Origin: Actinomycetota bacterium
Lineage (GTDB): Bacteria; Actinomycetota; Acidimicrobiia; Spongiisociales; UBA5794
Reading direction: 5' to 3'
Length of the DNA stretch: 64,000 bases
NCBI GenBank assembly: GCA_030123765.1
Contig: JASJXX010000002.1
Coordinates: 459-64,458, forward strand
Of the stretch, positions 46,292-64,000 are shown one piece after another (positions within the stretch are counted from its first letter, which is position 1; each line of letters opens with the position of its first letter). The translations under genes were made by a program, and so were the position numbers. The notes under the pieces are model-generated. The model worked only from the letters and a program-made list of their open reading frames with translations, was not told the DNA's origin and ran no database searches.

Positions 46292-47752
46292 CTACGCCTC
46301 GTCGACTGATGCGTTAAAGGATTCGATCATCTCGTCGATCGGATCTACCAACGCCTGAATACCCGTCCAGTAGTCCGAGTCGTACCACTGGGACTGGATC
46401 TCCTCATACGTCTTACCCTGCTGTTCGACCCACGTGTAATACTTCAGGTTGTGGACTCGCTTACGCTCGTAGTAGTCGAGCTCCTGCACATGTTGGAGGC
46501 TCTGGCCCATGAGATGCTGGTGGTAGGCGGCCGCAGCATCATGCGCCGTGAACTCGCCCCGCTCGTCGTTGAGTTCCGCCAGACGCGACCCGTACATCTC
46601 CATCGAGTCCGTCCCGACCGTCATCACGACGTCGTTCCCTGTGAGCTCGTACCACTTCGCGAACTTGATGGCCATCAACATGTTCGCGACCCCGGAGATA
46701 CCAAGGAGCGGAAGCTTCTCGATGAACGCCGCAGATGCTCCCTGGGCAGCCAGGTAGGCAAGGCCTGCAGGCTCGTTAAAGAGACGGATCAGGCTGATCG
46801 ATGACTCGTCATCGATCCCCATCACCATGTCTGTGTTGCGCACGTTGTGGATCCACGGGATGTGCTTGTCCCCGATCCCTTCTATCCGGTGCTCACCAAA
46901 GCCGTTGTAAAGCATTGTCGGGCACTCGGTCGCTTCACCCGCAACGATCTTCGAGTTCGGATACTGCTGTTTGAGGTAGTCTCCCGACGCGATCGTTCCG
47001 GCCGAGCCCGTTGTCAGGGTCACGCCGGCGAACCGGTCGAGCGGGCCCATGACCTCCCTGAGGACCTCGAACATGGCCGGGCCTGTGACCGAGTAGTGCC
47101 AGAGATAATTTCCGAACTCGTCGAACTGGTTGAAGATCACGAGATCCTCGCCCGAGACCCGCAACTCGTTGCACTTGTCGAAAATCTCTTTGACGTTCGA
47201 CTCGGTTCCCGGCGTCCTGATGATCTCGCCTGCCACGCTCTCGAGCCAATGGAACCGTTCGGCACTCATCCCTTCAGGGAGGATCGCGATCGACTCGCAC
47301 CCGAGGAGATTCGAGTCGTAGGCGCCGCCCCGACAGTAGTTGCCGGTCGAGGGCCATACAGCCTTCTGCGTTGCGGGGTCGAACTGGCCGCTGACGAGCC
47401 TCGGGACGAGGCAGCCGAACGCCGCGCCGACCTTGTGGGCGCCGGTCGGAAACCACTTTCCCTCGAGCATGATGATGCGAGCGTCAACACCGCTGACCTC
47501 GGGGGGAACTTCGAAGTAGTTCACCCCACCAAACCCTCCGCCCGAGGGTGTCGGGTCGTTGTGCCAGGTGATGCGGTACAGGTTGACGGGGTCGAGATCC
47601 CACAGCCCGACGCTGCCGAGGCGCTGCTTCACCTCTTCAGGGACCAGGCTCGGGTCCCGCATCTGCTTGAACGTCGGGATCTTGAAATTCCGCGCCTTTG
47701 CCTGGATGACGGCGGAGCGGAGAACAGACTCGTTGACGGTGAGGTCGATCAT
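46292..47752 (-). CDS. Fold-type II PLP-dependent enzyme (cysteine synthase/CBS-like core with long N- and C-terminal extensions)
   Basis: The candidate PLP-lysine segment is FPTGAHKVGAAFG, followed by WPSTGNYCRGGAYDS...AILPEGMSAERF, which parallels the PxGSxKDR...SGNxG...MPExMSxER pattern. It is 486 aa and the last gene of the carbamate-kinase operon. Confidence 0.7.
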   Translation of the reverse strand: MIDLTVNESVLRSAVIQAKARNFKIPTFKQMRDPSLVPEEVKQRLGSVGLWDLDPVNLYRITWHNDPTPSGGGFGGVNYFEVPPEVSGVDARIIMLEGKWFPTGAHKVGAAFGCLVPRLVSGQFDPATQKAVWPSTGNYCRGGAYDSNLLGCESIAILPEGMSAERFHWLESVAGEIIRTPGTESNVKEIFDKCNELRVSGEDLVIFNQFDEFGNYLWHYSVTGPAMFEVLREVMGPLDRFAGVTLTTGSAGTIASGDYLKQQYPNSKIVAGEATECPTMLYNGFGEHRIEGIGDKHIPWIHNVRNTDMVMGIDDESSISLIRLFNEPAGLAYLAAQGASAAFIEKLPLLGISGVANMLMAIKFAKWYELTGNDVVMTVGTDSMEMYGSRLAELNDERGEFTAHDAAAAYHQHLMGQSLQHVQELDYYERKRVHNLKYYTWVEQQGKTYEEIQSQWYDSDYWTGIQALVDPIDEMIESFNASVDEA

Positions 47753-47777
47753 GACGGACGGTCCTTTCCGTTGCCTC

Positions 47778-49031
47778 TCAATTGCTCAGGGCTGCTTTGA
47801 GCGCCTCGAGGTTCGGGTCGATGTACATGGGCTCGGTCCCGACCGCGGCTACAGCGCTCATGACCGAGGCAACGTCCTTGAGGCCGCTCCCGGTCGCGAG
47901 CATCACGACTCGGTCTCCGGCTCCGATGAGACCACGGTCAAGAGCCGCGACGATACCGGCGTACGGCGCAGCTCCCGCCGGTTCAGCGAAGACGCCCGAT
48001 CCGCGCGCCAACGTCGGTATTGCGGCAAGAATTTCGTCGTCTGCGACACGGAGATACGCTCCCCCCGTCTCGGTGACGGCTGCCATCGCCTTGATACGGT
48101 CACGGGGCAGATCGGCACTGATCGAGTCGGCAACAGTCTCCGCAGAGATAGGGGGCTTGGTCAGCACGTCCTCACCGCTCTCGAAGGCTTGAACGAGATA
48201 GTCACTCCCTGCGGCCTGAATGCCGAAGATACGCGGCACGCGGTCGATCCATCCGAGGGCGAAGGCATCCTTCACGGCCTTGTGGACCCCGCCGATGATC
48301 GACCCGTCGCCGACGCTCACGAAGATGGCGTCGGGGGCCTCCCATCCGAGGTCTTCGAGGATCTCGAGACCGGCGGTTTTCTTCCCCTCCGTCATGAACG
48401 GGTTGTACCCGGTATTGCGGTTGTACCAGCCGTACTCGGCGACGGCCTCCATGCAGAGTTCGAATGCGTCGGTGTACGTGCCATTGACGAGAGCGACCGT
48501 AGACCCGTACGCGAGCAACTGGGCGATCTTCGCTTCCGGCGCGGAGGAGGGGACGAATATCACGCTGCGCAGCCCGACGCTCGCCGCGATTCCGGCGAGG
48601 GCTGCTGCGGCATTCCCCGTCGACGCGGTGGTGACGACCTCCGCCGCACGCGCCTGCGCCTTGACGACGGCCATCGCCGAGGCACGGTCCTTGAGCGACG
48701 CCGTCGGCTGACGCCCCTCGTCCTTTACCCAGAGGTTCGCTATCCCGAGCCTGGCCGCGAGTGGCTTCACGTCATAGAGCGGCGTCCCTCCGATGCTGAG
48801 CGGCGGGACCACCGTGTCGCTGGCGAGCGGCATGAGCGGGAGATATCGCCACATCGTGCGATCTCGATTCTCGGCGAGTACCTCGCGCGTGAAGGTTGCT
48901 CCGATGCGCTCATAGTCGTAACGGACATCGAGTATCCCCTCGTTGCCGTGATCCGTGCAGACGTAACCTGCAAAGTCTTCCGGGTACATCGTGCCACAGA
49001 TCACGCACGCGAGTCCGATGACGTTACTCAT
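47778..49031 (-). CDS. Threonine synthase-like PLP enzyme with N-terminal zinc-ribbon
   Basis: It has the N-terminal CVICGTMY...YVC, then GGTPLY, KDEGRQPTASLKDRAS (PLP Lys) and TASTGNAAAALA. It is 417 aa and has an ATGA overlap with carbamate kinase. Confidence 0.8.
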   Translation of the reverse strand: MSNVIGLACVICGTMYPEDFAGYVCTDHGNEGILDVRYDYERIGATFTREVLAENRDRTMWRYLPLMPLASDTVVPPLSIGGTPLYDVKPLAARLGIANLWVKDEGRQPTASLKDRASAMAVVKAQARAAEVVTTASTGNAAAALAGIAASVGLRSVIFVPSSAPEAKIAQLLAYGSTVALVNGTYTDAFELCMEAVAEYGWYNRNTGYNPFMTEGKKTAGLEILEDLGWEAPDAIFVSVGDGSIIGGVHKAVKDAFALGWIDRVPRIFGIQAAGSDYLVQAFESGEDVLTKPPISAETVADSISADLPRDRIKAMAAVTETGGAYLRVADDEILAAIPTLARGSGVFAEPAGAAPYAGIVAALDRGLIGAGDRVVMLATGSGLKDVASVMSAVAAVGTEPMYIDPNLEALKAALSN

Positions 49032-49969
49032 CGAACGATCCTGGTGCCGGTCTCGCCGGCCATGGCCCGCTCGAGGTTCTCAGGATTTGTGATCAGTGCT
49101 TCGCTGCCTCCAGCCTCGAGGAACTGGACGACGGCACGCATCTTGGGGGCCATCGAACCCTCGGCGAAGTGTCCGCCCTCCTCAAGGTACGCCTTCACCT
49201 CGTCGAGCGTGAACTCATCCATCCACCGCTGATCCGGTGTACCGAAGTTGAGCGCGACCTGCTCGACTGCGGTGCAGATGAGCAGGAGATCGGCTCCGAT
49301 CTCGCTCGCCAGGAGCGCCGACGCGAGATCCTTGTCGATCACCGCCGCGATCCCTTCCAAATCTCCCTCTTCGTTCACAACGACCGGGATACCGCCGCCG
49401 CCGACGGCGATGGTGACGATTCCGGCGTCAACGAGGACCCGGATCACATCAAGTTCGACGATCCGCATCGGATGGGGGGAGGCCACGACACGACGCCAGC
49501 CGCGCCCGGCATCCTCAACGACATCCCAACCCTCCTCGTCGCGCCGGCGCACTGCCTCGTCCTCGTCCATGAAGGATCCGATTGGCTTCGTCGGCTTGTC
49601 GAACGCCGGATCGGCACGATCGACCTCGACCTGTGTGACAACCGTGACGACGCTCTTGTCGATGCCGCGCTGGCGAAAGTCGTTGACCAGGTTCTGCTGG
49701 AGCATGTACCCGATCGCGCCCTGTGTGTCAGCCCCGCAGTAATCGAGCGGGACCTCGTGAAGCTCGTTACTCGCAAGCTCGGACCGTCGCAGGATGAAAC
49801 CGATCTGGGGTCCATTGCCGTGAGAGATCACGACGTCCCACCCCTGCTCAACGAACGTTGCGATACGGTCGTCGGTCTCGGCCGCGGCTGCGTACTGGTC
49901 CTGGACCGACTGGTGCCTGGCGTCCGGGATCAGCGAATTACCGCCAATGGCGATAACGAGTCTGGGCAT
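49028..49969 (-). CDS. arcC: Carbamate kinase
   Basis: It has MPRLVIAIGGNSL and VISHGNGPQIG and is 313 aa, matching the amino-acid-kinase fold of ArcC/YqeA type. Its start overlaps the upstream stop (TAATG). Confidence 0.9.
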   Translation of the reverse strand: MPRLVIAIGGNSLIPDARHQSVQDQYAAAAETDDRIATFVEQGWDVVISHGNGPQIGFILRRSELASNELHEVPLDYCGADTQGAIGYMLQQNLVNDFRQRGIDKSVVTVVTQVEVDRADPAFDKPTKPIGSFMDEDEAVRRRDEEGWDVVEDAGRGWRRVVASPHPMRIVELDVIRVLVDAGIVTIAVGGGGIPVVVNEEGDLEGIAAVIDKDLASALLASEIGADLLLICTAVEQVALNFGTPDQRWMDEFTLDEVKAYLEEGGHFAEGSMAPKMRAVVQFLEAGGSEALITNPENLERAMAGETGTRIVR

Positions 49970-50928
49970 TACTCCCAGGCTCCGAGCACGGACGACAGCA
50001 GAGCCATGCGCATCACGACACCGTTGTAGGCCTCCTGCCAGTACCGGGCATGCTTGAGCTGGTCAACCTCCGGGAGCAGCTCGTCCATTCGCGGGAGCGA
50101 GTGGAGGATGATCGAGTCGCCCTTGGCCCGCTTCATGACCTCAGGAGTGATCTTGTAGTTGGCCGGGGTGAGGCCGTAGTCGTCGGGCCTCTCCTGAACG
50201 GAGAGGGTGTAATCGGGCTGGATGACCGGCTCCATGTAGATCACGTCGGCTTCGGCGATGACATCGTCGATGTGATCGACGACACGGTAATTCGTGCCCT
50301 TCTCGTCGAGCTCGGCAAGGAACTCCGGGAGAGGGGACATCTCCTCGGGAGCGAGGATGACCATCTCGACGTCGAATTGTGACAGGGCGTATCCGAGGGA
50401 GTGCATCGTCCGCATCCGGTGGTCACCGATGGCGACGAACGTGAGCCCGTCGATGGTGCCCTTCTCCTTCAACACGGTGTAGAGATCCGTGAGGATCTGG
50501 GTCGGATGCTCACCCCAACCGTCACCGGCGTTGATGACCGGGATTGAGCACCACTTGGCGGCCTCGTGGGGAGCACCCTGCTCAAAGTGGCGCATGACCA
50601 GGACATCGCCGTAGTACTCCAACATGTGGACCGTGTCTTTGATCGACTCCTGGTAGAAGTCGCCGGCACGCGTCATCTTGGCGTCCGAGAAGCCCGTCAC
50701 GTGACCGCCGAGGCGGTGCATCGCGGCCTCGTGGGCGAGCCGCGTCCGTGTGGAGGGCTGATAGAACGCGGTCACAAGCGTCTTGTGGGCAAGGAGATCC
50801 GTGTTTCGGCGTTCCCGGGCGATCGGCTCAAGGCGGTCGGCAATCTCGAAGAGGTGGAAGAACTCGCTCCGCTCGAAGTCCTTGAGGGAGAGAATGTCGC
50901 GTCCGGTGAAGCTACGCATGCCTGGCAT
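49969..50928 (-). CDS. ATCase-fold carbamoyltransferase with non-canonical acceptor site (not a plain PyrB)
   Basis: The carbamoyl-phosphate motifs STRTRLAHE, VMRH, GEHPTQ and the ATCase-type LHSLPRMDEL are present. The E. coli PyrB segment YMTRVQKER (Arg229, Gln231) reads YMEPVIQPD here. Confidence 0.8.
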   Translation of the reverse strand: MPGMRSFTGRDILSLKDFERSEFFHLFEIADRLEPIARERRNTDLLAHKTLVTAFYQPSTRTRLAHEAAMHRLGGHVTGFSDAKMTRAGDFYQESIKDTVHMLEYYGDVLVMRHFEQGAPHEAAKWCSIPVINAGDGWGEHPTQILTDLYTVLKEKGTIDGLTFVAIGDHRMRTMHSLGYALSQFDVEMVILAPEEMSPLPEFLAELDEKGTNYRVVDHIDDVIAEADVIYMEPVIQPDYTLSVQERPDDYGLTPANYKITPEVMKRAKGDSIILHSLPRMDELLPEVDQLKHARYWQEAYNGVVMRMALLSSVLGAWE

Positions 50929-50956
50929 CCTTTGAGTCGGCTTGGTACATTGGCCA

Positions 50957-50966
50957 TACTATAGTA
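50957..50966. promoter_or_regulatory. Perfect 10-bp palindrome TACTATAGTA in an AT-rich divergent promoter region (candidate GntR/HutC operator)
   Basis: It lies between the divergent starts at 50928 (-) and 50982 (+). It is flanked by GTACA repeats (50946-50950 and 50964-50968) and overlaps -10-like hexamers TATAGT, TACAAT and TATTAT. Confidence 0.45.
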
Positions 50967-50981
50967 CAATATTATGACCCT

Positions 50982-51734
50982 ATGCCATGCGGAGTGCTCC
51001 CGATGATTACCCGCAACCCGTCACTCACCGACCAGGTGAAAGCGCACATCAAAGAGCTCATCCTCACCGACGGTTTCGAGGATGCCCGAATCCCCCCCGA
51101 GACGGAGCTCGCCGCCGACCTCGGAGTCAGCCGCACCACCGTCCGCGACGCGCTGAGTCGCCTCCAGAGCGAGGGAGCGATCTATCGCCGTCAGGGCGCA
51201 GGCACCTTTGTCAACCAGCAGGGCCTCCAGATCAAGTCCCGCCTCGAAGACATCTGGTCCTACGAGAAGCTCCTCGAAGACCACGGATTCGAACCGTCGG
51301 TGCGAGTGCTCGCCGCATCCAAGGCTCCCGCCGACTCCCCCACCGCCGAGGCCCTGGGCCTCAACGACGGCGACATGGTGCTGATCATCGAGAAACTCTT
51401 CCTCGAAGACGAGAAGCCGGTCATGCTGACGATCAATCGCATCCCGACCCACTTCCTGAGCGGAACCGACTACGCCGACGATGAGGCGGCCCCGATCTAC
51501 GAGTTTCTCCAGGACCACTGCGACCGCTCACTGAGCTACTACCTCTCAGAGATCATCCCGGTCGCCCTCGACGCCGACACGGCGTCCAAGCTCGGGGTTG
51601 ATCCGGGCACACCGGCGATCTCATTCGACGAGATCGGATTCGACCAATCCAACGAGCCGCTCGTGCGGGCGACGTCACACTTCCGCGATGACCTCCTTCG
51701 GTTCCGGCTCATCCGCAAGAGAAGCGGGGCATGA
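50982..51734 (+). CDS. GntR family transcriptional regulator, HutC subfamily (UTRA effector domain)
   Basis: It has the winged HTH ETELAADLGVSRTTVRDALSRLQSEGAIYRRQGAGTFV followed by a UTRA-like C-terminal domain. The alternative start is ATG 51003. Confidence 0.88.
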   Translation: MPCGVLPMITRNPSLTDQVKAHIKELILTDGFEDARIPPETELAADLGVSRTTVRDALSRLQSEGAIYRRQGAGTFVNQQGLQIKSRLEDIWSYEKLLEDHGFEPSVRVLAASKAPADSPTAEALGLNDGDMVLIIEKLFLEDEKPVMLTINRIPTHFLSGTDYADDEAAPIYEFLQDHCDRSLSYYLSEIIPVALDADTASKLGVDPGTPAISFDEIGFDQSNEPLVRATSHFRDDLLRFRLIRKRSGA

Positions 51735-51775
51735 ACCATCCTCAGCCAGAGTCACGAGCCACAAAGGAGTAGTTG

Positions 51776-52750
51776 ATGCAGACCTATCTGCGGGGCCGCG
51801 ACATGATCACGACCCAGGAGTGGACCAAGGACGAGCTCGACACGGTGATCGATATCGCCCTCGACCTGAAACGCCGACGGGCTCTCGGTGAGCCGCACGC
51901 TCTGCTACGCGACAAGGTCCTCGCGATGTTGTTCTTCTTCTCAAGCACTCGAACCAGAGCAAGCTTTGAGGCCGGCATGGCCCAGCTCGGCGGCCACGCC
52001 ATGTTCCTCGACTCGACGAGCACCCAGATCGGCCACGGCGACACCTGGAAGGAGATCGGAGACATTCTGGGCCGCTACAACGATGGGATCGCCATCCGCC
52101 AGGTCGACTGGGGCATCGGCAACGACTACATCCGCGCCGTTGCGGAGGCCAGCCGCACCCCGGTGCTCAACATGCAGTGCGACTGGTATCACCCCTTCCA
52201 GGCACTTGCGGACCTGCTGACGATCATCGAGCAGAAGGGCGACCCCCGCAAGCTCACCATCAACATGAGCTACGCGTACGCAGCCAGCTATCAGAAGCCC
52301 ATCAGCGTGCCGCAGAGCCTCATCCTGCTCATGACCCGGTACGGCGCGAACGTGCGCCTCACCCATCCGCCGGAGTTCAAGCTCATGCCCGAGATCATCG
52401 CTCAGGCTGAGGAGAATGCCAAGAAATCCCACGGGTCCTTCGAGATCGTCGAAGACTTCGAGGAGGGGATGCGCGGCGCAGACGTCGTCTACGCCAAGGC
52501 GTGGGGTTCGATGCTCACCACCTCTGACCATGAAGAGTCAGCAAAGATCTCGGCGCATTACCAGGACTGGATCGTCGACCCGAGGCGGATGGAGATGGCC
52601 CACGAGGATGCCATCTACATGCATCCGCTCCCGGCCGACCGAAACGTAGAAGTGGCGGACGCCGTCATCGACGGGCCATCAAGCCGCGTGTTCGACCAGG
52701 CCGAGAATCGGCTCCACGTGCAGAAGGCGGTGATGGCGCTCACGATGTGA
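51776..52750 (+). CDS. YgeW-like (knotted) carbamoyltransferase
   Basis: It has SSTRTRASFE. NMQCDWYHPFQALADL matches E. coli YgeW NLQCDIDHPTQSMADL. SYQKPISVPQSLILLMTRYGANVRLTHP matches SYGKPLSVPQGIIGLMTRFGMDVTLAHP. It also has YMHPLPADR. The RBS AAGGAG lies 6 nt before ATG 51776. Confidence 0.8.
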   Translation: MQTYLRGRDMITTQEWTKDELDTVIDIALDLKRRRALGEPHALLRDKVLAMLFFFSSTRTRASFEAGMAQLGGHAMFLDSTSTQIGHGDTWKEIGDILGRYNDGIAIRQVDWGIGNDYIRAVAEASRTPVLNMQCDWYHPFQALADLLTIIEQKGDPRKLTINMSYAYAASYQKPISVPQSLILLMTRYGANVRLTHPPEFKLMPEIIAQAEENAKKSHGSFEIVEDFEEGMRGADVVYAKAWGSMLTTSDHEESAKISAHYQDWIVDPRRMEMAHEDAIYMHPLPADRNVEVADAVIDGPSSRVFDQAENRLHVQKAVMALTM

Positions 52751-52801: not shown

Positions 52802-53380
<579 letters not shown>

Positions 53381-53714: not shown

Positions 53715-54860
53715 ATGCCTCCTCACGCATGGACTGTGCACAACCCGACCGGCAGTCGCCGCGTCATTGTCACGAAGGAGCTCCCCGGGAGCCGGTGGCT
53801 CCACATCCTGACTGCCGCCGACTGTCGTGTGGAGGTCTGCACATCGGATACCGCCCTCACCGTCGATGAGATCGCCGGACAGATCGGTGACTCCTGCGAC
53901 GGAGTGATCGGCCAACTGACCGAAGACTGGAGCGCCGAGCTCTTCGCCATCCTTGCCGCAGCGGGAGCGAAGGCCTACTCGAACTACGCGGTCGGGTACA
54001 ACAACGTCGACGTCAACGGAGCGACGGCTGTAGGCATCCCGGTCGGGAACACGCCGGGCGTTCTCACGGAGACGACGGCGGAGATGGCTGTTGCGCTGAC
54101 CTTCTCGGCCGGTCGCCGTATCTGCGAGGCTGACAGGTTCATGCGCGACGGGAAGTATCACGGCTGGCTCCCGAGCCTGTTCATGGGGAAGCGTTTCCAC
54201 GGTGAAACCGTCGGCATCGTCGGTGCGGGACGGATCGGCGCTGCCTACGGGAGGATGATGGTCGAGGGTCACAAGATGAACCTCGTCTACTTCGATCTGT
54301 ACCCCAACGAGGCGCTCGAGCAGTACGTCAGTGCGTACTCGGCCTTCATCCAGGCCCGGGGAGAGGAACCGGTGACCTGCCGCCGGATCGCGACGATCGA
54401 AGAGCTACTCGCACTCTCAGACATCGTCAGCCTCCACACGGTTCTCGATGACAGCACGCATCATCTCATCAACGCCGAGCGACTGGCAGCGATGAAACCG
54501 GATGCGATCCTCATCAACTCGAGCCGGGGTCCCATCATCGACGAGGCAGCGCTCGTTGCACACTGCCGGACACATCCACAGTTCACCGCAGGCCTTGACG
54601 TGTTCGAAGACGAGCCCGCCATGAAGCCGGGCCTCGCCGATCTCGAGAACGTCGTCATCGTGCCGCACATCGCGTCCGCGTCGAAGTGGACCCGCGAAGG
54701 CATGGCGACCCTCGCGGCAGCGAACGTCGCAGCCATCCTCCAGGGGTACCCCTTGTGGAGCGGTGACGACGTTCTGCCATTCCTCTCGGGTGACGTGCCC
54801 CAAGCGGCGCCGAGTATCGTCAATGCCGTTGAACTCGAACTGCACGAGAAGGGAACCTAG
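53715..54860 (+). CDS. hprA: Hydroxypyruvate/glyoxylate reductase (glycerate dehydrogenase), plant HPR1-like
   Basis: It looks colinear with plant peroxisomal HPR1 from memory. Matching blocks include CDGVIGQLTEDW, YNNVDV, GNTPGVLTETTAE, GWLP, VGIVGAGRIGAAYGRMMVEG, LDVFEDEPAMKPGLADLENVVIVPHIASASKWTREGMATLAA and APSIVN. Confidence 0.85.
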   Translation: MPPHAWTVHNPTGSRRVIVTKELPGSRWLHILTAADCRVEVCTSDTALTVDEIAGQIGDSCDGVIGQLTEDWSAELFAILAAAGAKAYSNYAVGYNNVDVNGATAVGIPVGNTPGVLTETTAEMAVALTFSAGRRICEADRFMRDGKYHGWLPSLFMGKRFHGETVGIVGAGRIGAAYGRMMVEGHKMNLVYFDLYPNEALEQYVSAYSAFIQARGEEPVTCRRIATIEELLALSDIVSLHTVLDDSTHHLINAERLAAMKPDAILINSSRGPIIDEAALVAHCRTHPQFTAGLDVFEDEPAMKPGLADLENVVIVPHIASASKWTREGMATLAAANVAAILQGYPLWSGDDVLPFLSGDVPQAAPSIVNAVELELHEKGT

Positions 54861-54864
54861 AAAA

Positions 54865-56058
54865 ATGCGTATCGCCGATCGTATCGCCGACCTCGGGACC
54901 GAGACCGCATTCGCGGTGTCGGGCGAGGCTGCAACCTTTGCCGCACAAGGGAACCGGGTATATCCCTTCCATCTCGGAGACATCAACCTTCCTACCCCGT
55001 CGACCGTCGTCGAAGGGGCTGAGAAGGCGATCGCGGATGGCAAGACCGGGTACTGCCCGAACGCCGGGATCCCACAGCTCCGCGAAGCCATCGCCTCTAA
55101 CGTCGCTGCCTCCCACAAAACCGATTACACGGCCGAGAACGTCGTGATCCAGCCGGGTGGCAAGCCGACGATCGGTAAGTTCATCCTCACGCTGATGAAC
55201 CCGGGAGACGAGGTGCTCTACCCGAACCCGGGGTACCCCATCTACGAGTCCCAGATCGAGTTCCACGGTGGAGTCGCCGTCCCGTACGGGTATGTCGAGG
55301 GTGTCAAGAACTTCGAGTTGGACTTCGATTCGATCGAGCGTGGCATCACGGAGAAGACCCGCCTCCTGATCCTCAATGACCTGCAGAACCCGATGGGCGC
55401 CGAGTGCTCCATCGAGGAGCACGAACGGCTCGCCGAAATCGTCCGCGCACACGACCTGTACGTCCTCGCCGACGAGGCCTACTTCGACATGCGCTACTCG
55501 GGGGAGAGCACATCCTTCGTTGAGCAGCCCGGCATTGCGGAACGAACTGTCGTGTTGTACACCTTCTCAAAGAAGTTTGCAATGACCGGGTGGCGCCTCG
55601 GTGCGAGCATCGGCCCGAAGGAGATCATGGAGGTAATCGCCAAGATCAATGTCAACGACGAATCCTGCTCGAACCACTTCGTCCAGTACGGCGCTCTCGC
55701 AGGGCTACGCGGGGACCAGAGCGAGGTGCAAGCGATCCTCGACACGCTCGAAGCACGAAGGGACGCGACCGTCAACGGGTTAAACGCGATCGACGGGATC
55801 ACCACGTTCACGCCCGACGCCACCTTCTACCTGTTTCCCAACGTCACCGAGCTGATGGAGCGGAAGAACATCAAGAGCTACGAGGTGTTCCGCCGCGCGG
55901 CCCTCCACGCCACGGGGGTGTCGTTCACCTCCCGGATCCACTTCGGCCGACAGGTCGATGACGAGTCGAACCGATACATCCGCTTCGCCTACTCAGGCAT
56001 CGACGTCGCCGACATCGAAGAGGGCCTCGGCCTCTTCAAGGAGTGGGCAGAGCGGTAG
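54865..56058 (+). CDS. Class I/II PLP-dependent aminotransferase
   Basis: It has the PLP-lysine region YTFSKKFAMTGWRLG, NPGYPIY, and LILNDLQNPMG. It is 397 aa and starts 5 nt after the hprA stop. Confidence 0.85.
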   Translation: MRIADRIADLGTETAFAVSGEAATFAAQGNRVYPFHLGDINLPTPSTVVEGAEKAIADGKTGYCPNAGIPQLREAIASNVAASHKTDYTAENVVIQPGGKPTIGKFILTLMNPGDEVLYPNPGYPIYESQIEFHGGVAVPYGYVEGVKNFELDFDSIERGITEKTRLLILNDLQNPMGAECSIEEHERLAEIVRAHDLYVLADEAYFDMRYSGESTSFVEQPGIAERTVVLYTFSKKFAMTGWRLGASIGPKEIMEVIAKINVNDESCSNHFVQYGALAGLRGDQSEVQAILDTLEARRDATVNGLNAIDGITTFTPDATFYLFPNVTELMERKNIKSYEVFRRAALHATGVSFTSRIHFGRQVDDESNRYIRFAYSGIDVADIEEGLGLFKEWAER

Positions 56059-56068
56059 CCCGAGGGGG

Positions 56069-56656
56069 CTACTCGCTCTGCAGTTCCTCGTAGTCTCGGG
56101 GGGTGTTGATGTCGCGAGGTGCACTCTGCGCCACCGCAACTTTTACCACGCGGTCGTCCTGCGCGTCGACAAGGAGGCGCCACAGCACCTTCTCCCCCAC
56201 CATCGACGCAGCACACTCCACCGCGTCGCGTGACAGAAGGAAAGGGTGGGCGACCCGGTCGCGGTACGCGGCCACCGCTGCCCAGGGTCTCTCCTCCGTC
56301 CAGACCCCGACCATCGTATTGATGACGGTGGTCCGAACCTGGGGCAGATCGCCCGCCACGAGCAGGAATGCGGCGGCGTCAGGATCCGCGGTAGTCGCCG
56401 TGAGGAGTGACGACATGTTCCCACGGCGGTAGTCCGGATTCGTCACGACCGTCACGGAGACGGCCTTGATCGACGCTTCGACCATCTCTGCATCGCACCC
56501 GGTGACGACGATCACCCTGTCAAGCATGCTCGCCTGGACCGCATCAATCGTCGCGTTGAGTACCGTCGTCCCCTGGTACTCCAGCGTGAGCTTCGATGCT
56601 GCCATCCGCGTCGAGGCGCCTGCGGCGAGAACGACCCCGACGATTGGACGCGGCAT
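56069..56656 (-). CDS. mocA: Molybdenum cofactor cytidylyltransferase (MocA-like nucleotidyltransferase)
   Basis: It has VVLAAGASTRM, matching the MobA/MocA NTP_transf_3 fold. It is the last gene of the Mo-hydroxylase operon. Confidence 0.8.
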   Translation of the reverse strand: MPRPIVGVVLAAGASTRMAASKLTLEYQGTTVLNATIDAVQASMLDRVIVVTGCDAEMVEASIKAVSVTVVTNPDYRRGNMSSLLTATTADPDAAAFLLVAGDLPQVRTTVINTMVGVWTEERPWAAVAAYRDRVAHPFLLSRDAVECAASMVGEKVLWRLLVDAQDDRVVKVAVAQSAPRDINTPRDYEELQSE

Positions 56657-58876
56657 TCAGACCCCGACAATGTCGGTAGGGAGCACCGGAACCCTCGTCA
56701 GTGATCTACCCGTCGCCGCTCGAATAGCCGCGACGATCGCCGGTGTCGAACTGATCGTGGGTGACTCCGCTATCCCCTTCGCCCCGAAGGGACCCCAGTG
56801 GTCCCCCTCTTCGATGATCCGGACTTCGACGTCGGGGGCATCGAGGAACGTCGGAATCAGGTAGTCGGTGAACGTCGGATTCCGGATGACACCCCCGTCA
56901 ATGACAAGCTCCTCCATCACCGCGAAGCCCATGCCTTGCATGATGCCACCCTCGAGCTGCCCCACTATCGCCTGAGGATTGAGTGCCCTGCCGACATCCT
57001 GAGCCGTATCGACACGGACCACGCGCACGAGGCCGAGCTCCGGGTCGACGTCCACCACGGCACGGTGGGCAGCGACGACGAACCCGGCGTGGATCTCCCC
57101 CTGGCCGTCGGCGTCAGGCGGGTAGGTCTTCGGATGCCTGAAGCGAACATGACATTCGACGGGGCCATCGCTGCAGATCTCGTTGACCGTCGCGACAAGC
57201 TCGCCCTGTTTGTACACACCATCATCGCGGAGCTCGTCTCCGCCGTGGAGCGAGAGAATCTGATCACGGAGCCCGACGGCAGCATCATGCACGGCGCCCC
57301 CGGTCATCTGGGTCTGACGGGACGCCGAAGTGGACCCGGCCGAACCGATCTGTGAGGTGTCCTTCCATACGACAGCTACTCGATCAACTCCCAGAACGGT
57401 CCGGGCGATCTGCTGGCAGACGGTGACAAGACCCTGTCCCACCTCTATCGCCGCCGTGTGGATCTCGATGCCTGCGGGGGTCATCACCACCCGGGCCTCG
57501 GCGAAATCGTCGAAGCCTTCGGAGAAAGCGAGGTTCTTCAACCCGACGGCGTACCCGACGCCGCGAACGACCGCTGACCGAGGCGTCGTCAACCCCGTCC
57601 CGCCGGGAGCGAGCCGCGGGTCGTCCGAGGGGATCGGATCCGGAATCGGTATCGATTCGAGCGCATCGATCACCGCGACCGTCGGGAGCGAGCCCTGTAT
57701 GACCTGGCCGGACGTGGCAAAGGGGTCGCCGGGAGCGAGCGCGTTGCGCCGCCGGAGTTCGAGGGGAGCGAGGCCGATCGCCTCAGCGAGGCTGTCCATC
57801 TGGCTCTCGGACGCGAAGCAGGCTTGCACCACGCCGAATCCGCGCATCGCACCCGCCGGAGGATTATTCGTTCGGACGACCACCGCATCGATGACGACGT
57901 TGTCGCAACGATACGGGCCAACGCTGAAGAACGCTGCGTTGGCTATGACCGCCGGGCTCGTGTGGGCGTAGGCCCCACCGTCGAGAATCAGCCGTGCCGT
58001 GACCTTCACCAGATTCCCGTCCTCGTCCGCCTCGTGGCGGTACCACATGCGTGACGGGTGCCGCTTCACATGACCGACGAACGACTCAGATCGGTCGTAC
58101 ACCATCTTCACGCTGCGGCCGGTCGCGAGGGCGAGCATGGCGACGTGGATGTGCAGCGAGATGTCCTCCCGCGAGCCGAACGCGCCGCCGATCCCTGCAG
58201 GGTGGCAACGGACCTGATCGGGTTCCAGATCGAGGCATGCGATGATCTGGCGGTGGTCCACGTGGACCCACTGGCTCGTGATGTACAGGTCGAGACCTCC
58301 CTCCCCGTCCGGGATCGCGAATCCCGCCTCAGGTCCGAGCGGCGCCTGATCCTGCGTCGCTGTCTCGTAGAACCCCTCGACGACAACACTCCCCTCTGCC
58401 GTCTCGTCCCCGCGGCGGATCCTCATCTCGCGGAATGTCGAGCCGATCTCCGCAGCTCTCTCAGGATCATCAAGCGGGTCAAGCGGCTCCCACACCGCCA
58501 CGATCGCCGCAGCGGCACGCCTCGCGGTCTCCTCGTCGTCGGCTGCCACTACGGCAACCGGTTCACCCCAATATCTGGCTGTTCCGTCGCAGAGCACAGG
58601 CTGATCCTGCTCCACCTGACCGAACATGGGGCTACCGACCACGTCGTCCTGCGTCAGGACAGCGTGCACGCCGACCATCGCGAGGGCGGGGCCGATGTCA
58701 AGTTCCGTCAGCGTGGCGTGAGCGTGCGGGCTCCGCAGCGTCGCGCCCCACAGCATCCCCGGCGAGGACAGATCGGACGCGAAGGCGAAGTTCCCTGTGA
58801 CCTTCGGCTCTCCGTCCGGCCTCCCGACGCTGGTACCGATGCCCCCCCGTACCCTGGGCAGCGTTCGAGTCGTCAT
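56657..58876 (-). CDS. Xanthine dehydrogenase family, molybdopterin-binding large subunit
   Basis: It is 739 aa with the N-terminal a/b-hammerhead (GRPDGEPKVTGNFAFASD) and the Moco domains GIGGAFGSRED and GPFGAKGIAESP. Confidence 0.9.
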   Translation of the reverse strand: MTTRTLPRVRGGIGTSVGRPDGEPKVTGNFAFASDLSSPGMLWGATLRSPHAHATLTELDIGPALAMVGVHAVLTQDDVVGSPMFGQVEQDQPVLCDGTARYWGEPVAVVAADDEETARRAAAAIVAVWEPLDPLDDPERAAEIGSTFREMRIRRGDETAEGSVVVEGFYETATQDQAPLGPEAGFAIPDGEGGLDLYITSQWVHVDHRQIIACLDLEPDQVRCHPAGIGGAFGSREDISLHIHVAMLALATGRSVKMVYDRSESFVGHVKRHPSRMWYRHEADEDGNLVKVTARLILDGGAYAHTSPAVIANAAFFSVGPYRCDNVVIDAVVVRTNNPPAGAMRGFGVVQACFASESQMDSLAEAIGLAPLELRRRNALAPGDPFATSGQVIQGSLPTVAVIDALESIPIPDPIPSDDPRLAPGGTGLTTPRSAVVRGVGYAVGLKNLAFSEGFDDFAEARVVMTPAGIEIHTAAIEVGQGLVTVCQQIARTVLGVDRVAVVWKDTSQIGSAGSTSASRQTQMTGGAVHDAAVGLRDQILSLHGGDELRDDGVYKQGELVATVNEICSDGPVECHVRFRHPKTYPPDADGQGEIHAGFVVAAHRAVVDVDPELGLVRVVRVDTAQDVGRALNPQAIVGQLEGGIMQGMGFAVMEELVIDGGVIRNPTFTDYLIPTFLDAPDVEVRIIEEGDHWGPFGAKGIAESPTISSTPAIVAAIRAATGRSLTRVPVLPTDIVGV

Positions 58877-59340
58877 GCTCCCTCACTTGTCAGTGCGGTG
58901 AAGGCGCGCAGGATCGCCCCGTATCCAGTGCACCGGCAGATATTGCCAGATAACGCCTCACGAATCTCAGGCTCGGTCGGGTGCGAGTTCGTCTCGAGCA
59001 GATGCACGCCAGTAACGATGAACCCGGGAGTGCAGAAACCACACTGGACGGCACCCTCTGCGAGCATCACCTCCTGGAGTGGGTGCAACTGCGCGCCCTC
59101 CCCGATTCCCTCGACGGTCGTCACTGTCGCGCCGTCGGCGTCCGCCGCCATGACAAGACACGAGCAGACGGCTGCACCGTCGAAGATGACGGTGCATGAT
59201 CCACACTCCCCCTGCTCACACGCGTCCTTCGTACCCGGCAGACCAAGATCGTTACGAAGTGTGTGCAGCAGGCTCTCGGAACCCGCAACATCCACGGAAC
59301 GTCGCTCTCCGTTAACGGTGATCACGATGGGCACGGTCAC
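58873..59340 (-). CDS. [2Fe-2S]-binding small subunit (CoxS/XdhC-iron-sulfur type)
   Basis: All eight Cys ligands are present: CEQGECGSCTV...CSC and CGFCTPG...CRCTGY. The GTG 59340 start overlaps the upstream TGA. Confidence 0.9.
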   Translation of the reverse strand: MTVPIVITVNGERRSVDVAGSESLLHTLRNDLGLPGTKDACEQGECGSCTVIFDGAAVCSCLVMAADADGATVTTVEGIGEGAQLHPLQEVMLAEGAVQCGFCTPGFIVTGVHLLETNSHPTEPEIREALSGNICRCTGYGAILRAFTALTSEGA

Positions 59341-60137
59341 GCGAGACACCGTTCGGCGAGCCTGCGCGCAAGCACCCCCGCAGCGTGACGTCGATACCCC
59401 TCCGTCGATCGGTGATCGGTGATCGGGCGAACCTCCTCCGACACGATCCGGGAGAACTCCTTGAGCGCCTCTTCGGTGATCCTCGCCTCGGCATTGAGCA
59501 TCTCCTCTGCCCTCGTCACCCGTATAGGCGTCGGCGCCACCGATCCGAGAGCAACACGGAAACCGTCGTCGCCGCGCATGACCACGCAACTCACAATGGA
59601 GATGACCATCGCGTTGCGAGTCCCGACCTTGGCGAACTCCTGAGCCGTAGGGACGTCATCGGGAATAGCGACACCGGTGACCACCTCGTCAGGTTCGAGC
59701 GAGGTGTGTTTGACACCGGTGAAGAACTCGTTCCAGGGAATGACTCGCTCGCCACGCTCCTTCGATCGGACAACGATTCGGGCATTCGCGGCAGCGATCC
59801 AGGGAAGGCCGTCACCAGCCGGGCTCGCGGTCGCGACGTTGCCTCCAATCGTTGCAACGGCACGGATCTGCGGCGAGCCGATGGTCCGGGCAGCCTGAGC
59901 GAGAGCGCCGTGATCCGAGCCCTCGAGTCGGGCCCAGGTAACGCCGGCTCCGATACGGTTCGATGTCATCTCCCTGAGCTCTTCTACGCGTCGCAGGGAG
60001 ATGACCCGCGACGGCCGGCGGTGGGCGATGTTCACCTCCACCATGAGGTCGGTCCCGCCGGCGAGGAGCTGCGCGTCGGGTCGTTGAGCCTTCGCTGCGA
60101 GCGTTTCGTCGAGATTCCGGGCAGCGAGAAAGTCCAT
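59337..60137 (-). CDS. FAD-binding subunit of molybdopterin dehydrogenase (CoxM-like)
   Basis: It has LLAGGTDLMVEVN and ATIGGNVATASPAGD (FAD_binding_5). The start is ATG 60137 (MDFLAARNLDE). Confidence 0.88.
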   Translation of the reverse strand: MDFLAARNLDETLAAKAQRPDAQLLAGGTDLMVEVNIAHRRPSRVISLRRVEELREMTSNRIGAGVTWARLEGSDHGALAQAARTIGSPQIRAVATIGGNVATASPAGDGLPWIAAANARIVVRSKERGERVIPWNEFFTGVKHTSLEPDEVVTGVAIPDDVPTAQEFAKVGTRNAMVISIVSCVVMRGDDGFRVALGSVAPTPIRVTRAEEMLNAEARITEEALKEFSRIVSEEVRPITDHRSTEGYRRHAAGVLARRLAERCLA

Positions 60138-60217
60138 GACCGTACCGTAGCCCGCGGCCCGCTGCCACTTGTCCGTCGCCCGTGGCCGGCGAAGGGCTCC
60201 CGCTGCTCCTCTCCCCG

Positions 60218-61582
60218 TCACCCCACCAGACGCTTCGCGGCCCGATTGTGCTCCTCAATCAGCTTCGGTAGCTCGACGCCCACCAGTTCGCCGTCGCGGA
60301 CGACAGGTTTGCCGTGTACGAAGGAGTGGTCCACGCGCACAGCAGCGGCGAACAGGACTGCCGCGACGGGATCGTGCAACGCCCCGGCGTACTCGATGCG
60401 GTCGAGCGAGATAGCGATGAAGTCCGCGCCTCTGCCAGGCTCAAGCGAACCGATGTCGTCCCTCCCGAGAACCGCTGCCGATCCGCGGGTCGCGATGCGC
60501 AGAACCTCCCTAGCAGTGAGCAGCCTCCCGCCCTCGATCGAGGGCGCCGCCGCGAGGCGGGAGAGCAACATGGCCTGCCGGGCCTCTCCGAGCAGGTGGC
60601 TGCCGTCGTTGCTCGCCGATCCATCGACGCCGATGCCGAGCCGGACGCCGGCCGCCAGGTAGCGGCGAACCGGAGCGATACCCGAACCGAGGCGCATGTT
60701 CGACGATGGGCAGTGGGCGATCCCGGTGCCAGATTCAGCGAGACGGTCGATCTCACCATCGTTGATGTAGACACCGTGGGCGTACCACACGTCATCCCCG
60801 ACCCACCCGAGATCCTCCATGAGCTCGACGGGACGCCGCCCGAACCTCTCGATGCAGAACTGCTCCTCGTCGTACGTCTCAGCAACGTGGGTGTGGAGGT
60901 GGACGCCGTGACGGCGCGCAAGGTTCGCCGATTCGCGCATCAGCTCCTCCGTCACCGAGAAGGGGGAACACGGGGCGACCACGATTCGGGTCATGGCGCC
61001 CGGAGCCGGGTCGTGGAACGCTTCGATGACCCTCTCGGTGTCGAGCAGGATCGCCTCTTGGTCCTCGACGACGGAGTCGGGAGGCAGCCCGCCGTCGCTC
61101 TCGCCGAGGCTCATCGACCCACGCGCTGCGTGGAAGCGCAGACCGACCCCGGCGGCACCCTCGATCTGGTCGTCGAGCCTCGATCCGTTAGGGAAGACGT
61201 ACTGGTGGTCTGACGAGGTCGTGCACCCGGAGAGGGCGAGCTCCGCGAGGGCGAGCCGGGTCGCGATCCGCACGTCGTCGGGTGTGATCCGTGCCCAGAT
61301 TGGGTAGAGCGTGCGGAGCCAGTCAAAGAGGCCGACGTCCTGAGCGCCGGGGACCGCCCGCGTGAGGGTCTGGTAGAAGTGATGATGCGTATTGATGAGC
61401 CCGGGGAGCACGACGTGCCCGGAGAGATCGAGAACTTCGTCTGCGCTGTCGGGGAGCTCGGAGGTCGTGCCTACGTGTTTGATGATCCCGTCCACGGCGT
61501 AGAGACCGCCGTCCGCGATCTCGGTTCCGTCGTCGTCCATGGTGGCCAGAACCTGCGCGTGCCGGACAAGAAGTGTGCTCAT
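60218..61582 (-). CDS. 8-oxoguanine deaminase-like amidohydrolase (guanine deaminase/SsnA superfamily)
   Basis: It has the metal ligands NTHHHFYQTLTR, HTHVAET and VDGSASND. The subgroup blocks SSDHQYVFPNGSRLDD and RFHAARGSMSLGESDGGLPPDSVVE match what I remember for 8-oxoguanine deaminases. Confidence 0.75.
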   Translation of the reverse strand: MSTLLVRHAQVLATMDDDGTEIADGGLYAVDGIIKHVGTTSELPDSADEVLDLSGHVVLPGLINTHHHFYQTLTRAVPGAQDVGLFDWLRTLYPIWARITPDDVRIATRLALAELALSGCTTSSDHQYVFPNGSRLDDQIEGAAGVGLRFHAARGSMSLGESDGGLPPDSVVEDQEAILLDTERVIEAFHDPAPGAMTRIVVAPCSPFSVTEELMRESANLARRHGVHLHTHVAETYDEEQFCIERFGRRPVELMEDLGWVGDDVWYAHGVYINDGEIDRLAESGTGIAHCPSSNMRLGSGIAPVRRYLAAGVRLGIGVDGSASNDGSHLLGEARQAMLLSRLAAAPSIEGGRLLTAREVLRIATRGSAAVLGRDDIGSLEPGRGADFIAISLDRIEYAGALHDPVAAVLFAAAVRVDHSFVHGKPVVRDGELVGVELPKLIEEHNRAAKRLVG

Positions 61583-61682
61583 AGAAGTGAATGTACCAAC
61601 CTACTCAACTCCTACGTCGCTCTCCGAGCTCCGTTCTCTCGGTAAAGTGGAGGCACGGGATAGAAGAGGAGCCGAGACGAAC

Positions 61683-62423
61683 ATGACCATGCAGTACTCC
61701 CGACCCCTCACCCTCGATGAGGCCACCACCCTTGCAGCCCGGCCCGACACCGTGATCATGGCGGGGGGAACGTCCGTTAACGCCGGAGGCGGTAGCTCCG
61801 GTGTCACCGCCGTGGATCTGCAAGCGCTCAACCTCGCCGGAATCGAATCTCTTGGTGCGTTCATCCGCATCGGGGCGATGACGCGCCTTCAGGCACTCGT
61901 GGAATCAGACCTCGTCCCGTTCACTCTCCGCGATCTCGCCCGACGCGAAGCCCCCAGCACGATCCGTAACGCGGCGACGGTCGGTGGTACCGTCGGTGCC
62001 GCGGATCCCGAGAGTGAACTCCTCGCCGGCCTGCTCGCGTTCGGTGCCGTCGTCACTCTCGCGAGGGTGGGTTCAACGACCGACCATGCCCTCGACGACA
62101 TCCTCCACGATCCAGGGCTGATCAGCCAGGCGATCATGACGAGTGTCACGATCCCGACCACCGGAGTCGCTGCCGCCGAACGTACCGGTCGCACGCCGAT
62201 GGACCGACCGATCGTGATGGTCGTTGCCCACAGAGGCGCGGCAGAAGCCGTCCGTATGGCCGTGACCGGAGTCGCACACGTTCCGGTGGTCGTGGATCCA
62301 GAGCGGATCAAAGACCTCGATCCGCCGTCAGACTTCCGCGGGTCACCCGACTATCGAAGGCACCTCGCCACCGTGCTCGCAGACCGGGTCCTTACCGCAG
62401 TCACGGAGAGTGATCCGGAATGA
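61683..62423 (+). CDS. YgfM-like short FAD-binding subunit
   Basis: It is 246 aa with IMAGGTSVN and ATVGGTVGAADPESE (FAD_binding_5). The RBS GAGGAG lies upstream, and there is an ATGA overlap with the next gene. Confidence 0.8.
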   Translation: MTMQYSRPLTLDEATTLAARPDTVIMAGGTSVNAGGGSSGVTAVDLQALNLAGIESLGAFIRIGAMTRLQALVESDLVPFTLRDLARREAPSTIRNAATVGGTVGAADPESELLAGLLAFGAVVTLARVGSTTDHALDDILHDPGLISQAIMTSVTIPTTGVAAAERTGRTPMDRPIVMVVAHRGAAEAVRMAVTGVAHVPVVVDPERIKDLDPPSDFRGSPDYRRHLATVLADRVLTAVTESDPE

Positions 62424-64000
62424 CGATCACCCTCACCATCAACGGGGTCGAGCAGATCCTCTCCTGCGAGCCCCACGAATCGCTACGTTCGGTGCTGCGA
62501 AGAGCCGGATACTTCAGCGTCCGTTACGGGTCGAGCACGGGGGAGACAGGTGCAGCCGCCGTCCTCGTCGACGGCAGCCTCATCTCCGCCGACGTCATGC
62601 TCGGTGCGCAAGCCGACGGCCACGATGTCGAGACGATCGAAGGTCTCAGCACACTCGGCCAACTCCATCCGATCCAGAAGGCATTCATCGACTCGGGCGC
62701 GATCCAGTCCGGGTACTCGACTCCGGCGACGATCCTCGCCGCGAAAGCCCTCATCGACCGGAACCCGAGACCCACCGAGGACGATGTCAGGGATGCCCTC
62801 TCAGGAATACTCGACCGCGAGACGGGTTATCTGCGGCCCGTCCACGCCGTGTTGCGCGCCGCTGCGGTGATGCGGGGAGAGGAACCTGATGACATCGCCA
62901 TCACGCACCTCGATCCTCTCCTTGATGGTGGCAGCGACGCAGCGAGCGCCGATCGCGCCCGGGTCTCCGAGATCGCCCCTCGCGTCGTGCCGTGCAGTGA
63001 CGTCCCGCGGACCCGCGTCGTCGGGCACGCAGAGCCGAAGGTCGACGCTATCAAACTCGTCAAGGGGAACCCTGCGTTCACCGACGATGTCGACCTGACC
63101 GGGACCCTCATCGCGAAGGTCCTCTACAGCCCGCATGCCCACGCGAGAATAACCTCGATCGACGATTCGGCAGCGCGATCTCTCCCCGGCGTCCACGCGG
63201 TCCTGCATCACGGCAACGTGACCCAGGTACGGTACGCGTCTGGTGGTCAGAGTTACCCGAACCCGCTCCCCTACGACCAGGTGAGCTTCGGCGACAAGGT
63301 CCGTTATGTCGGGGACCGTGTCGCCGCCGTTGCCGCCGACACCGAGGAGATCGCGCTCTCTGCGCTCGACCTGATCGATGTCACCTACGAGGTGCTCCCC
63401 GCGGTCTTCGACGAGAACGAGGCAATCCTCGAGGGTGCACCGGTGATCCATGACGAACCTGGGATGGAGGGCGCGCACGATCCGTCCCGCAACATCGTCC
63501 ATCATCTCAAGGCCGACACCGGCGACATCGAGGAAGGCTTCGCTGCTGCCGACCGGATCTTCGAACAGACCTATCGCGTGCACCAGGTACAGCCGGCTCC
63601 GATCGAACCACACGTTGCGATCGCCGCGTGGGACTCCGACGAACGACTTGTCATCACCTCCTCCACCCAGGTGCCTTTCCATATCCGGCGCATGGTCGCG
63701 CCGCTCCTCGGTCTTCCTGTGAAGCGGATCCGCATTATCAAGCCCCGGATCGGTGGTGGGTTCGGAGTCAAACAGGAGCTGCTGATCGAGGATATCGTCG
63801 GTCACCTTACGATGGCTACAGGTCGTCCTGTCCGCCTCGAACTCACCCGCGCAGAGGAGTTCGTCTCGAGCCGCACACGGCACCCTCAGACGATCACTTT
63901 CAAGACCGGTGTCGACGCTGACGGGAGACTCACCGCCCAGGAGATGCGCATCATCGCCAACACCGGTGCATATGGCACTCACGGCCTGACGGTCCAGCTC
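62420..64000 (+). CDS. XdhD-like molybdenum hydroxylase: Cys-less [2Fe-2S]-like domain fused to the molybdopterin subunit (3' end outside the window)
   Basis: This frame is not in the ORF track because it has no stop inside the window. ATG 62420 gives MTITLTINGVEQ...IQSGYSTPATILAAKAL...ALSGILDRETGY then ...HAEPKVDAIKLVKGNPAFTDD...DRVAAVAADTEEIALSALDLIDVTYEVL...IIKPRIGGGFGVKQE, which looks colinear with E. coli XdhD as I recall it. Confidence 0.8.
   Translation, partial: MTITLTINGVEQILSCEPHESLRSVLRRAGYFSVRYGSSTGETGAAAVLVDGSLISADVMLGAQADGHDVETIEGLSTLGQLHPIQKAFIDSGAIQSGYSTPATILAAKALIDRNPRPTEDDVRDALSGILDRETGYLRPVHAVLRAAAVMRGEEPDDIAITHLDPLLDGGSDAASADRARVSEIAPRVVPCSDVPRTRVVGHAEPKVDAIKLVKGNPAFTDDVDLTGTLIAKVLYSPHAHARITSIDDSAARSLPGVHAVLHHGNVTQVRYASGGQSYPNPLPYDQVSFGDKVRYVGDRVAAVAADTEEIALSALDLIDVTYEVLPAVFDENEAILEGAPVIHDEPGMEGAHDPSRNIVHHLKADTGDIEEGFAAADRIFEQTYRVHQVQPAPIEPHVAIAAWDSDERLVITSSTQVPFHIRRMVAPLLGLPVKRIRIIKPRIGGGFGVKQELLIEDIVGHLTMATGRPVRLELTRAEEFVSSRTRHPQTITFKTGVDADGRLTAQEMRIIANTGAYGTHGLTVQL

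Follow-up and report, generated by a model that had tools for sequence, protein, structure and literature searches.

What do two atypical pyridoxal phosphate (PLP) enzymes do at the end of a carbamate-kinase operon? An earlier note, made from sequence alone, raised this question for a 64,000-nucleotide stretch of an Actinomycetota bacterium of the class Acidimicrobiia (GenBank assembly GCA_030123765.1, contig JASJXX010000002.1), which we call the window. The two genes, both on the minus strand, encode a 486-residue enzyme with a CysK fold (46292..47752; PLP486) and a 417-residue ThrC-like enzyme (47778..49031). The note placed them as the terminal genes of the operon, tied them to carbamoyl-group chemistry, and proposed a 3-substituted alanine, such as 2,3-diaminopropionate (DAP) or ureidoalanine, as their substrate. 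Our analysis bears out the layout and the link. By sequence and genomic context, the pair belongs to the lower half of a variant of the oxygen-free urate pathway, where it probably handles the C3 diamino acid that remains once the purine rings are open, a job so far known only for YgeX.

Both open reading frames (ORFs) are intact at the positions given, and the operon consists of four co-directional minus-strand genes with the PLP pair at its end. Its first gene encodes an ATCase-fold "pseudo-ATCase" carbamoyltransferase with an HSLP motif (49969..50928), an extra paralogue, and is followed by carbamate kinase (49028..49969, 397 bits vs. a 266-bit cut-off), the ThrC-like gene and PLP486. Carbamate kinase overlaps both of its neighbours, by 1 nucleotide with the carbamoyltransferase gene (at 49969) and by 4 nucleotides with the ThrC-like gene (49028-49031). 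The 25-nucleotide spacer before PLP486 holds a ribosome-binding motif, GGAAAGGA, and a convergent gene ends 12 nucleotides past the final stop codon of the operon. No terminator-like sites were found inside the four-gene unit.

By the note's own criterion, its claim would fail if the ThrC-like gene were the only threonine synthase of the genome and PLP486 a bona fide cysteine synthase, in which case both would be housekeeping genes. The host genome (2.2 Mb, 98.6% complete) contains nine PALP genes, including a separate ThrC on contig C3 that scores 291 bits, vs. 171 bits for the ThrC-like gene of the operon. Two CysK/CysM-type genes elsewhere score 322 and 254 bits, while the PLP486 gene region scores 83 bits in the same whole-genome scan. 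PyrB, ArgF and CarB are also present elsewhere in the genome. Both carbamoyltransferases in the window are extra copies, since the genome has four, one of them beside CarB on another contig. Neither PLP gene is a housekeeping gene, and with a better ThrC, two CysK/CysM copies and other carbamoyltransferases encoded elsewhere, we rejected that reading.

The ThrC-like protein has the CxxC...C ribbon and the SLKDR motif that had been read from its sequence, the latter with the PLP lysine K114. The PALP profile matches it at 248 bits. Against threonine synthase profiles it is a borderline case, scoring 170.7 bits with TIGR00260 (cut-off 167.1) and 294.3 bits with NF006050 (cut-off 303). The DpaL profile gives 54 bits (cut-off 276), and the next-best matches after ThrC are Ser/Thr dehydratases. 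We aligned 39 members of this family with four solved ThrC structures (1UIM, 2D1F, 2ZSJ and 6CGQ) and the genome's own ThrC. In T. thermophilus ThrC numbering, all 39 members carry the replacements T88 to A, S155 to G or A, R160 to M, T or L, and N188 to D; the equivalent residues in the window's protein are A141, G208, M213 and D242. The four solved ThrCs retain T, S, R and N at these positions, and the genome's own ThrC retains T, R and N, with a gap at the S155 column. In T. thermophilus ThrC these four residues are reported to bind the phosphate of O-phosphohomoserine (Omi et al. 2003). The threonine-synthase phosphate pocket is altered in the ThrC-like protein, and the replacements argue that this family is not a threonine synthase by function. 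The N-terminal zinc ribbon, made up of three cysteines and a His/Asp ligand, is also a family trait, with C9, C12 and C25 conserved in 38 of 39 members.

PLP486 is more remote from any named family. It contains all three core motifs that had been noted (FPTGAHKVG, STGNYCRGGA and ILPEGMSAERF), and the PALP profile matches residues 102-342 at 56.5 bits. Its scores against curated profiles are far below their cut-offs for cysK (89.7 vs. 350.95), cysKM (84.7 vs. 344), cysM (32.9 vs. 394), SbnA (38.6 vs. 350) and CBS (59 vs. 510), and the DpaL profile (TIGR01747 / NF006058) returned no match. Judged by these profiles, the family is not a member of CysK, CysM, SbnA, CBS or DpaL. Public records give it only generic names, "pyridoxal-phosphate dependent enzyme" or "cysteine synthase", and ESM Atlas searches by features and by shape returned only this generically named family itself. 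No relative bears the name OrtB (2-amino-4-ketopentanoate thiolase beta subunit), and no match to an OrtB model came up. The catalytic lysine K107, the carboxylate loop (S135-T136-G137-N138), Q209 and the glycine loop (G249-S-A-G-T253) are conserved throughout the family. Since these elements are common to PLP486 and CysK, aminoacrylate chemistry would be expected.

PLP486 does have extra N- and C-terminal residues, which the note could not assign. With CysK profiles and with Foldseek, the alignment covers only ~320-350 of its 486 residues and leaves out roughly 70-90 at the N-terminus and 100-130 at the C-terminus. In the AlphaFold model (mean per-residue confidence, pLDDT, of 95.4) both extensions are helical with pLDDT above 90. 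N57, L58 and W63 in the extensions are invariant in the family, while W441 and W462 are nearly so. Among solved structures the fold comes closest to those of CysK, beta-cyanoalanine synthase and CBS, with 22-26% identity, and no solved CysK found by Foldseek covers the helical extensions.

How widely does this gene occur, and in what company? Scanning one genome per species, we found at least 596 carriers of the PLP486 family, with 63-73% identity between proteins from Actinomycetota, Chloroflexota, Desulfobacterota, SAR324, Bacillota, Bipolaricaulota and others. The locus search used a narrower alignment, as the first, very diverse one was too variable. We then compared 80 loci, 41 of which have at least 8 kb on both sides. 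The usual order in the 80 loci is a GntR regulator (in some), pseudo-ATCase, an OTC-like transferase, carbamate kinase, at times a Bmp ABC transporter, the ThrC-like gene, at times a variable passenger, PLP486, a 190-residue gene and a HyuA-like gene. The passengers between the two PLP genes vary in other phyla (GT2, VanZ). SsnA, YgfK, xanthine dehydrogenase (XDH) or YgeY genes also lie close to these loci, with HyuA-like genes in 31 and YgeY in 12 of the 80. Among the 41 loci with full flanks, the ThrC-like gene is present in 31, a carbamoyltransferase in 27, carbamate kinase in 23, DpaL in 2, and any pathway marker in 34. The proposed link to carbamoyl chemistry is thus upheld by a synteny with the carbamoyltransferase and carbamate-kinase module that is conserved in the 80 loci and across many phyla.

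The gene between PLP486 and the HyuA-like gene belongs to a ~190-residue family with no Pfam match. It occurs in 30 of the 80 loci, mostly from Anaerolineae (for example L045:11558-12169), and is absent from the window.

Within the window's own class the family is patchily spread, and two of 61 sampled genomes, besides the host, carry the PLP486 type (66-69% identity). A second subfamily at ~46-48% identity is found in ten of the 61 (G022, G028, G037, G038, G042, G048, G051, G056, G064 and G068) and is present in all seven genomes of one Acidimicrobiia family. One such gene, on a metagenome contig (L107:8788-10296), adjoins F420 biosynthesis genes, two CoA-transferase subunits and a luciferase-like oxidoreductase. 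More generally, homologues with 47% identity or less are found in unrelated contexts (F420 and CoA-transferase genes, a radical-SAM gene with two PALP genes in tandem, sulfation genes), and look like separate subfamilies. Short metagenome contigs with distant homologues added little. One public metagenome-assembled genome (MAG) labelled "Chloroflexota bacterium" (L017, JADFQV010000008.1) has the same operon with 100% protein identity, while the nearest relatives are labelled Acidimicrobiia or Actinomycetota. It is probably the same organism as the window's, under a doubtful taxonomic label.

The neighbouring genes tell us which pathway the pair belongs to. The reductive uric-acid pathway was worked out only in 2025, for E. 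coli and gut clostridia (PMC12507026; bioRxiv 10.1101/2025.04.24.650524). It starts with the reduction of urate and, through the opening of both rings, leads to 2,3-diureidopropionate; YgeW and YgeY then remove the ureido groups, YgeW yielding carbamoyl phosphate and hence ATP via YqeA (same sources). The late intermediates are 2,3-diureidopropionate, ureidoalanine (albizziin) or 3-amino-2-ureidopropionate, and DAP, which YgeX converts to pyruvate in the last step; the two papers differ as to the ureido group on which YgeW acts. Among these intermediates are the compounds that the earlier note had named, DAP and ureidoalanine, which supports a 3-substituted alanine as the likely substrate of the pair.

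The contig holds much of this pathway. A second, OTC/YgeW-like carbamoyltransferase (51773..52750, plus strand), under all curated cut-offs, lies on the other side of the regulator gene from the operon. Two XDH-type enzymes are encoded further on: a PucD/E/C-type xanthine dehydrogenase in a minus-strand group with MocA and 8-oxoguanine deaminase (56069..61582), and a YgfM-like FAD subunit with an XdhD-like Mo/Fe-S subunit (61539..64000, plus strand). The XdhD-like gene extends past the window end and continues in the adjoining part of the contig, L013, which encodes XdhC, YqeB, YqeC, a Bmp-type ABC transporter, DpaL, YgfK-like and SsnA-like proteins and two CN-hydrolases. SsnA, YgfK, XdhD/YgfM, carbamoyltransferase and carbamate kinase are co-located both here and in loci of many phyla. 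The genes around the PLP pair make up a variant form of the reductive uric-acid (2,8-dioxopurine) pathway.

The DpaL gene (L013:9056-10366) is a true one, scoring 342 bits vs. a 276-bit cut-off, and lies ~25 kb from the PLP pair. It is grouped with a 629-residue YgfK-like protein and an SsnA-like amidohydrolase (L013:9056-13056), so that on this contig the lower half of the pathway lies apart from the upper half. The 629-residue protein matches only the N-terminal 400 residues of YgfK and has a ferredoxin domain in addition. After the XdhD-like gene, XdhC, YqeB (311 bits, above its cut-off) and YqeC (L013:1776-4080) are maturation factors for selenium-dependent molybdenum hydroxylases. YgeY was not found in the genome, and its sole hydantoinase is unlinked to the cluster.

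Does the pair replace YgeX? In seven of ten whole genomes with the cluster, DpaL falls under the cut-off. Among the seven are a complete chromosome from Anaerolineaceae and the genome of the isolate Vallitalea maricola, which has YgfK, SsnA, YgeY, YgeW, HyuA, XDH and both PLP genes at its locus. The ThrC-like gene is present in 12 of 14 genomes examined, and all 14 have either it or DpaL. In the two without it, related Bacillota MAGs, PLP486 is followed by DpaL, with YgeY just upstream. The otherwise E. coli-like urate cluster of these two MAGs also includes an Fe-S L-serine dehydratase, SdaB/SdaA (L091:13258-14914), next to PLP486 and DpaL. PLP486 is the constant partner, and the adjoining lyase varies.

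On balance we favour the view that this pair serves as the PLP module in a "two-transferase" version of the reductive uric-acid pathway, and with similar confidence that both enzymes act on purine-derived C3 amino acids. In such a variant, the OTC/YgeW-like transferase and the pseudo-ATCase would split off both ureido groups of 2,3-diureidopropionate by phosphorolysis, and carbamate kinase would convert each carbamoyl phosphate to ATP, two ATP in total. Removal of the ureido groups would set free DAP. PLP486 may form a PLP-aminoacrylate from DAP or from the mono-ureido compound albizziin and hand on the C3 unit, in our preferred version by beta-replacement with water to give L-serine. The ThrC-like enzyme, its phosphate pocket lost and an invariant Asp gained, would be a deaminating lyase that turns serine or DAP into pyruvate and ammonia, and in the Bacillota SdaAB would deaminate serine in its place.

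This specific serine relay is a tentative proposal that we hold as possible rather than probable. It would explain why PLP486 is constant, why SdaAB occurs in just those clusters that lack the ThrC-like gene, and why the host lineage has an aminotransferase paired with a hydroxypyruvate-reductase-like gene. The pair consists of a class I/II aminotransferase (54763..56058, plus strand; its start codon is uncertain, as the ORF overlaps the preceding gene) and a D-2-hydroxyacid dehydrogenase of the glyoxylate/hydroxypyruvate-reductase-like type (53715..54860, plus strand), the latter conserved in two close relatives alone, L018 and L052. Going further, PLP486 may catalyse a PLP reaction new to purine catabolism, either hydrolytic beta-replacement of DAP or ureidoalanine to serine or racemisation of a D-intermediate. 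With the ThrC-like lyase it could form an obligatory two-enzyme ending that is the main route over YgeX in environmental Chloroflexota, Actinomycetota, Desulfobacterota and others, a suggestion to which we give somewhat less than even credence.

Several observations weigh against this account. Four of the 14 genomes, including the host, have DpaL alongside the PLP pair, so simple replacement of YgeX cannot be the whole story. Two Bacillota loci hold the complete E. coli-type enzyme set plus PLP486, so its role there is additional. Seven of the 41 loci with full flanks have no pathway marker within 10 kb, and their neighbours are uninformative. The support for serine comes from two lineages only, as SdaAB in the two related Bacillota and as the aminotransferase and hydroxyacid dehydrogenase in the host lineage. 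The DAP produced may be of D or L configuration, and the genome's only hydantoinase is unlinked.

Alternatively, the two enzymes could have parallel roles. The ThrC-like enzyme would be a non-orthologous diaminopropionate ammonia-lyase standing in for YgeX, and PLP486 would act on a side intermediate, through beta-elimination or beta-replacement of urea from albizziin, or through cysteine or serine salvage from aminoacrylate. The presence of a ThrC-like gene or DpaL in every genome examined, with DpaL adjoining PLP486 in the two that lack the former, fits this, as does the rank of Ser/Thr dehydratases right behind ThrC in the profile matches; a beta-ammonium group could be held by the Asp that is invariant in place of the phosphate-binding Asn. 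However, four genomes, including the host, keep both DpaL and the ThrC-like gene, an albizziin lyase would be redundant because the clusters already hold two ureido-removing enzymes, and SdaAB inside the Bacillota cluster is left unexplained. We consider parallel roles rather unlikely.

Racemases and D-specific eliminases are both known among fold-type II PLP enzymes. The hydantoinase branch might give D-products, with one of the PLP enzymes serving as a racemase or D-specific eliminase for DAP or albizziin that feeds an L-specific lyase, whether ThrC-like or DpaL. Such a stereochemical division is in keeping with the D-stereospecificity of E. coli HyuA, with the ability of E. coli YgeX to take both DAP isomers, and with C. 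difficile UacY, which occupies the place of YgeW there and is a D-aminoacylase homologue (PMC12507026). It would also suit the ~30 loci in which PLP486 adjoins HyuA-like genes, and the occurrence of PLP486 in every such cluster with a variable lyase partner. CysK-type enzymes are not known to act as racemases, however, and the model, pure inference, is improbable.

That both enzymes are biosynthetic or housekeeping after all (threonine and cysteine synthase, or enzymes that build a non-proteinogenic amino acid) and merely adjoin catabolic genes is very improbable and largely refuted, since a ThrC-like score just above the TIGR00260 cut-off and a public "cysteine synthase" label stand against better copies elsewhere in the genome, phosphate-pocket residues lost in all 39 members of the ThrC-like family, CysK, CysM, SbnA and CBS scores of PLP486 that are 4- to 10-fold under cut-offs, and translational coupling and cross-phylum synteny that bind both genes to catabolic ones.

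The rest of the window around the operon adds regulatory and decayed elements. The operon and a plus-strand GntR/HutC-type regulator gene (50982..51734; GntR and UTRA domains by profile match, syntenic in 11 of the 80 loci) diverge from a short control region (50929..50981). It contains one sigma-70-like match (50942-50970, plus strand), a count no higher than expected from shuffled sequence. Between the second carbamoyltransferase and the hydroxyacid dehydrogenase, a 140-residue ORF (52958-53380, within 52802-53380) matches only positions 54-156 of the 445-residue NADP-glutamate dehydrogenase profile. It is a decayed remnant inside the cluster, and the 965 nucleotides between its two neighbours could not accommodate an intact gene. 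An intact glutamate dehydrogenase gene is located at L013:15671-17179. On the other side of the operon, a 133-residue ORF (43134-43535) has a weak AhpC-TSA_2 match.

In at least several hundred environmental species, then, the PLP genes of this cluster belong to two uncharacterised families that are publicly mislabelled as threonine synthase and cysteine synthase. In a 2025 survey of cluster variants, every neighbour with PF00291 counted as "YgeX" (PMC12507026), and neither pathway paper (PMC12507026; bioRxiv 10.1101/2025.04.24.650524) mentions the PLP486 or ThrC-like families. Assigning their reactions would fill in the pathway for most carriers outside the gut, put thousands of annotations right, and test the yield of two ATP per purine in the two-transferase version.

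How does the pair compare with known systems? A similar context is that of the pseudo-ATCase group 2/YgeW in Nocardioides sp. JS614, where an H[ST]LP pseudo-ATCase likewise lies beside a YgeW-type transferase and XDH genes; that paper mentions no PLP enzyme (Barba et al. 2013, PMC4016543). The core of PLP486 matches the fold of CysK/CysM, beta-cyanoalanine synthase and CBS (Foldseek TM-score of 0.8-0.85 on the target), but its lysine motif is TGAHKVG rather than SVKDR, and its extra termini are conserved. ThrC (TIGR00260) is the best sequence match of the ThrC-like protein (E ~1e-50), and the two have the PLP lysine and the S-T-G-N loop in common. The ThrC-like protein differs in its added N-terminal zinc ribbon, in the four replaced positions and in being a second copy in the genome. 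YgeX/DpaL is also a fold-type II PLP enzyme found at the same pathway end, adjoining carbamoyltransferase, carbamate kinase, HyuA and SsnA genes, and it likely draws on the same substrate pool, DAP. The pair described here belongs to other subfamilies, comprises two enzymes instead of one, and is encoded 25 kb from a true DpaL.

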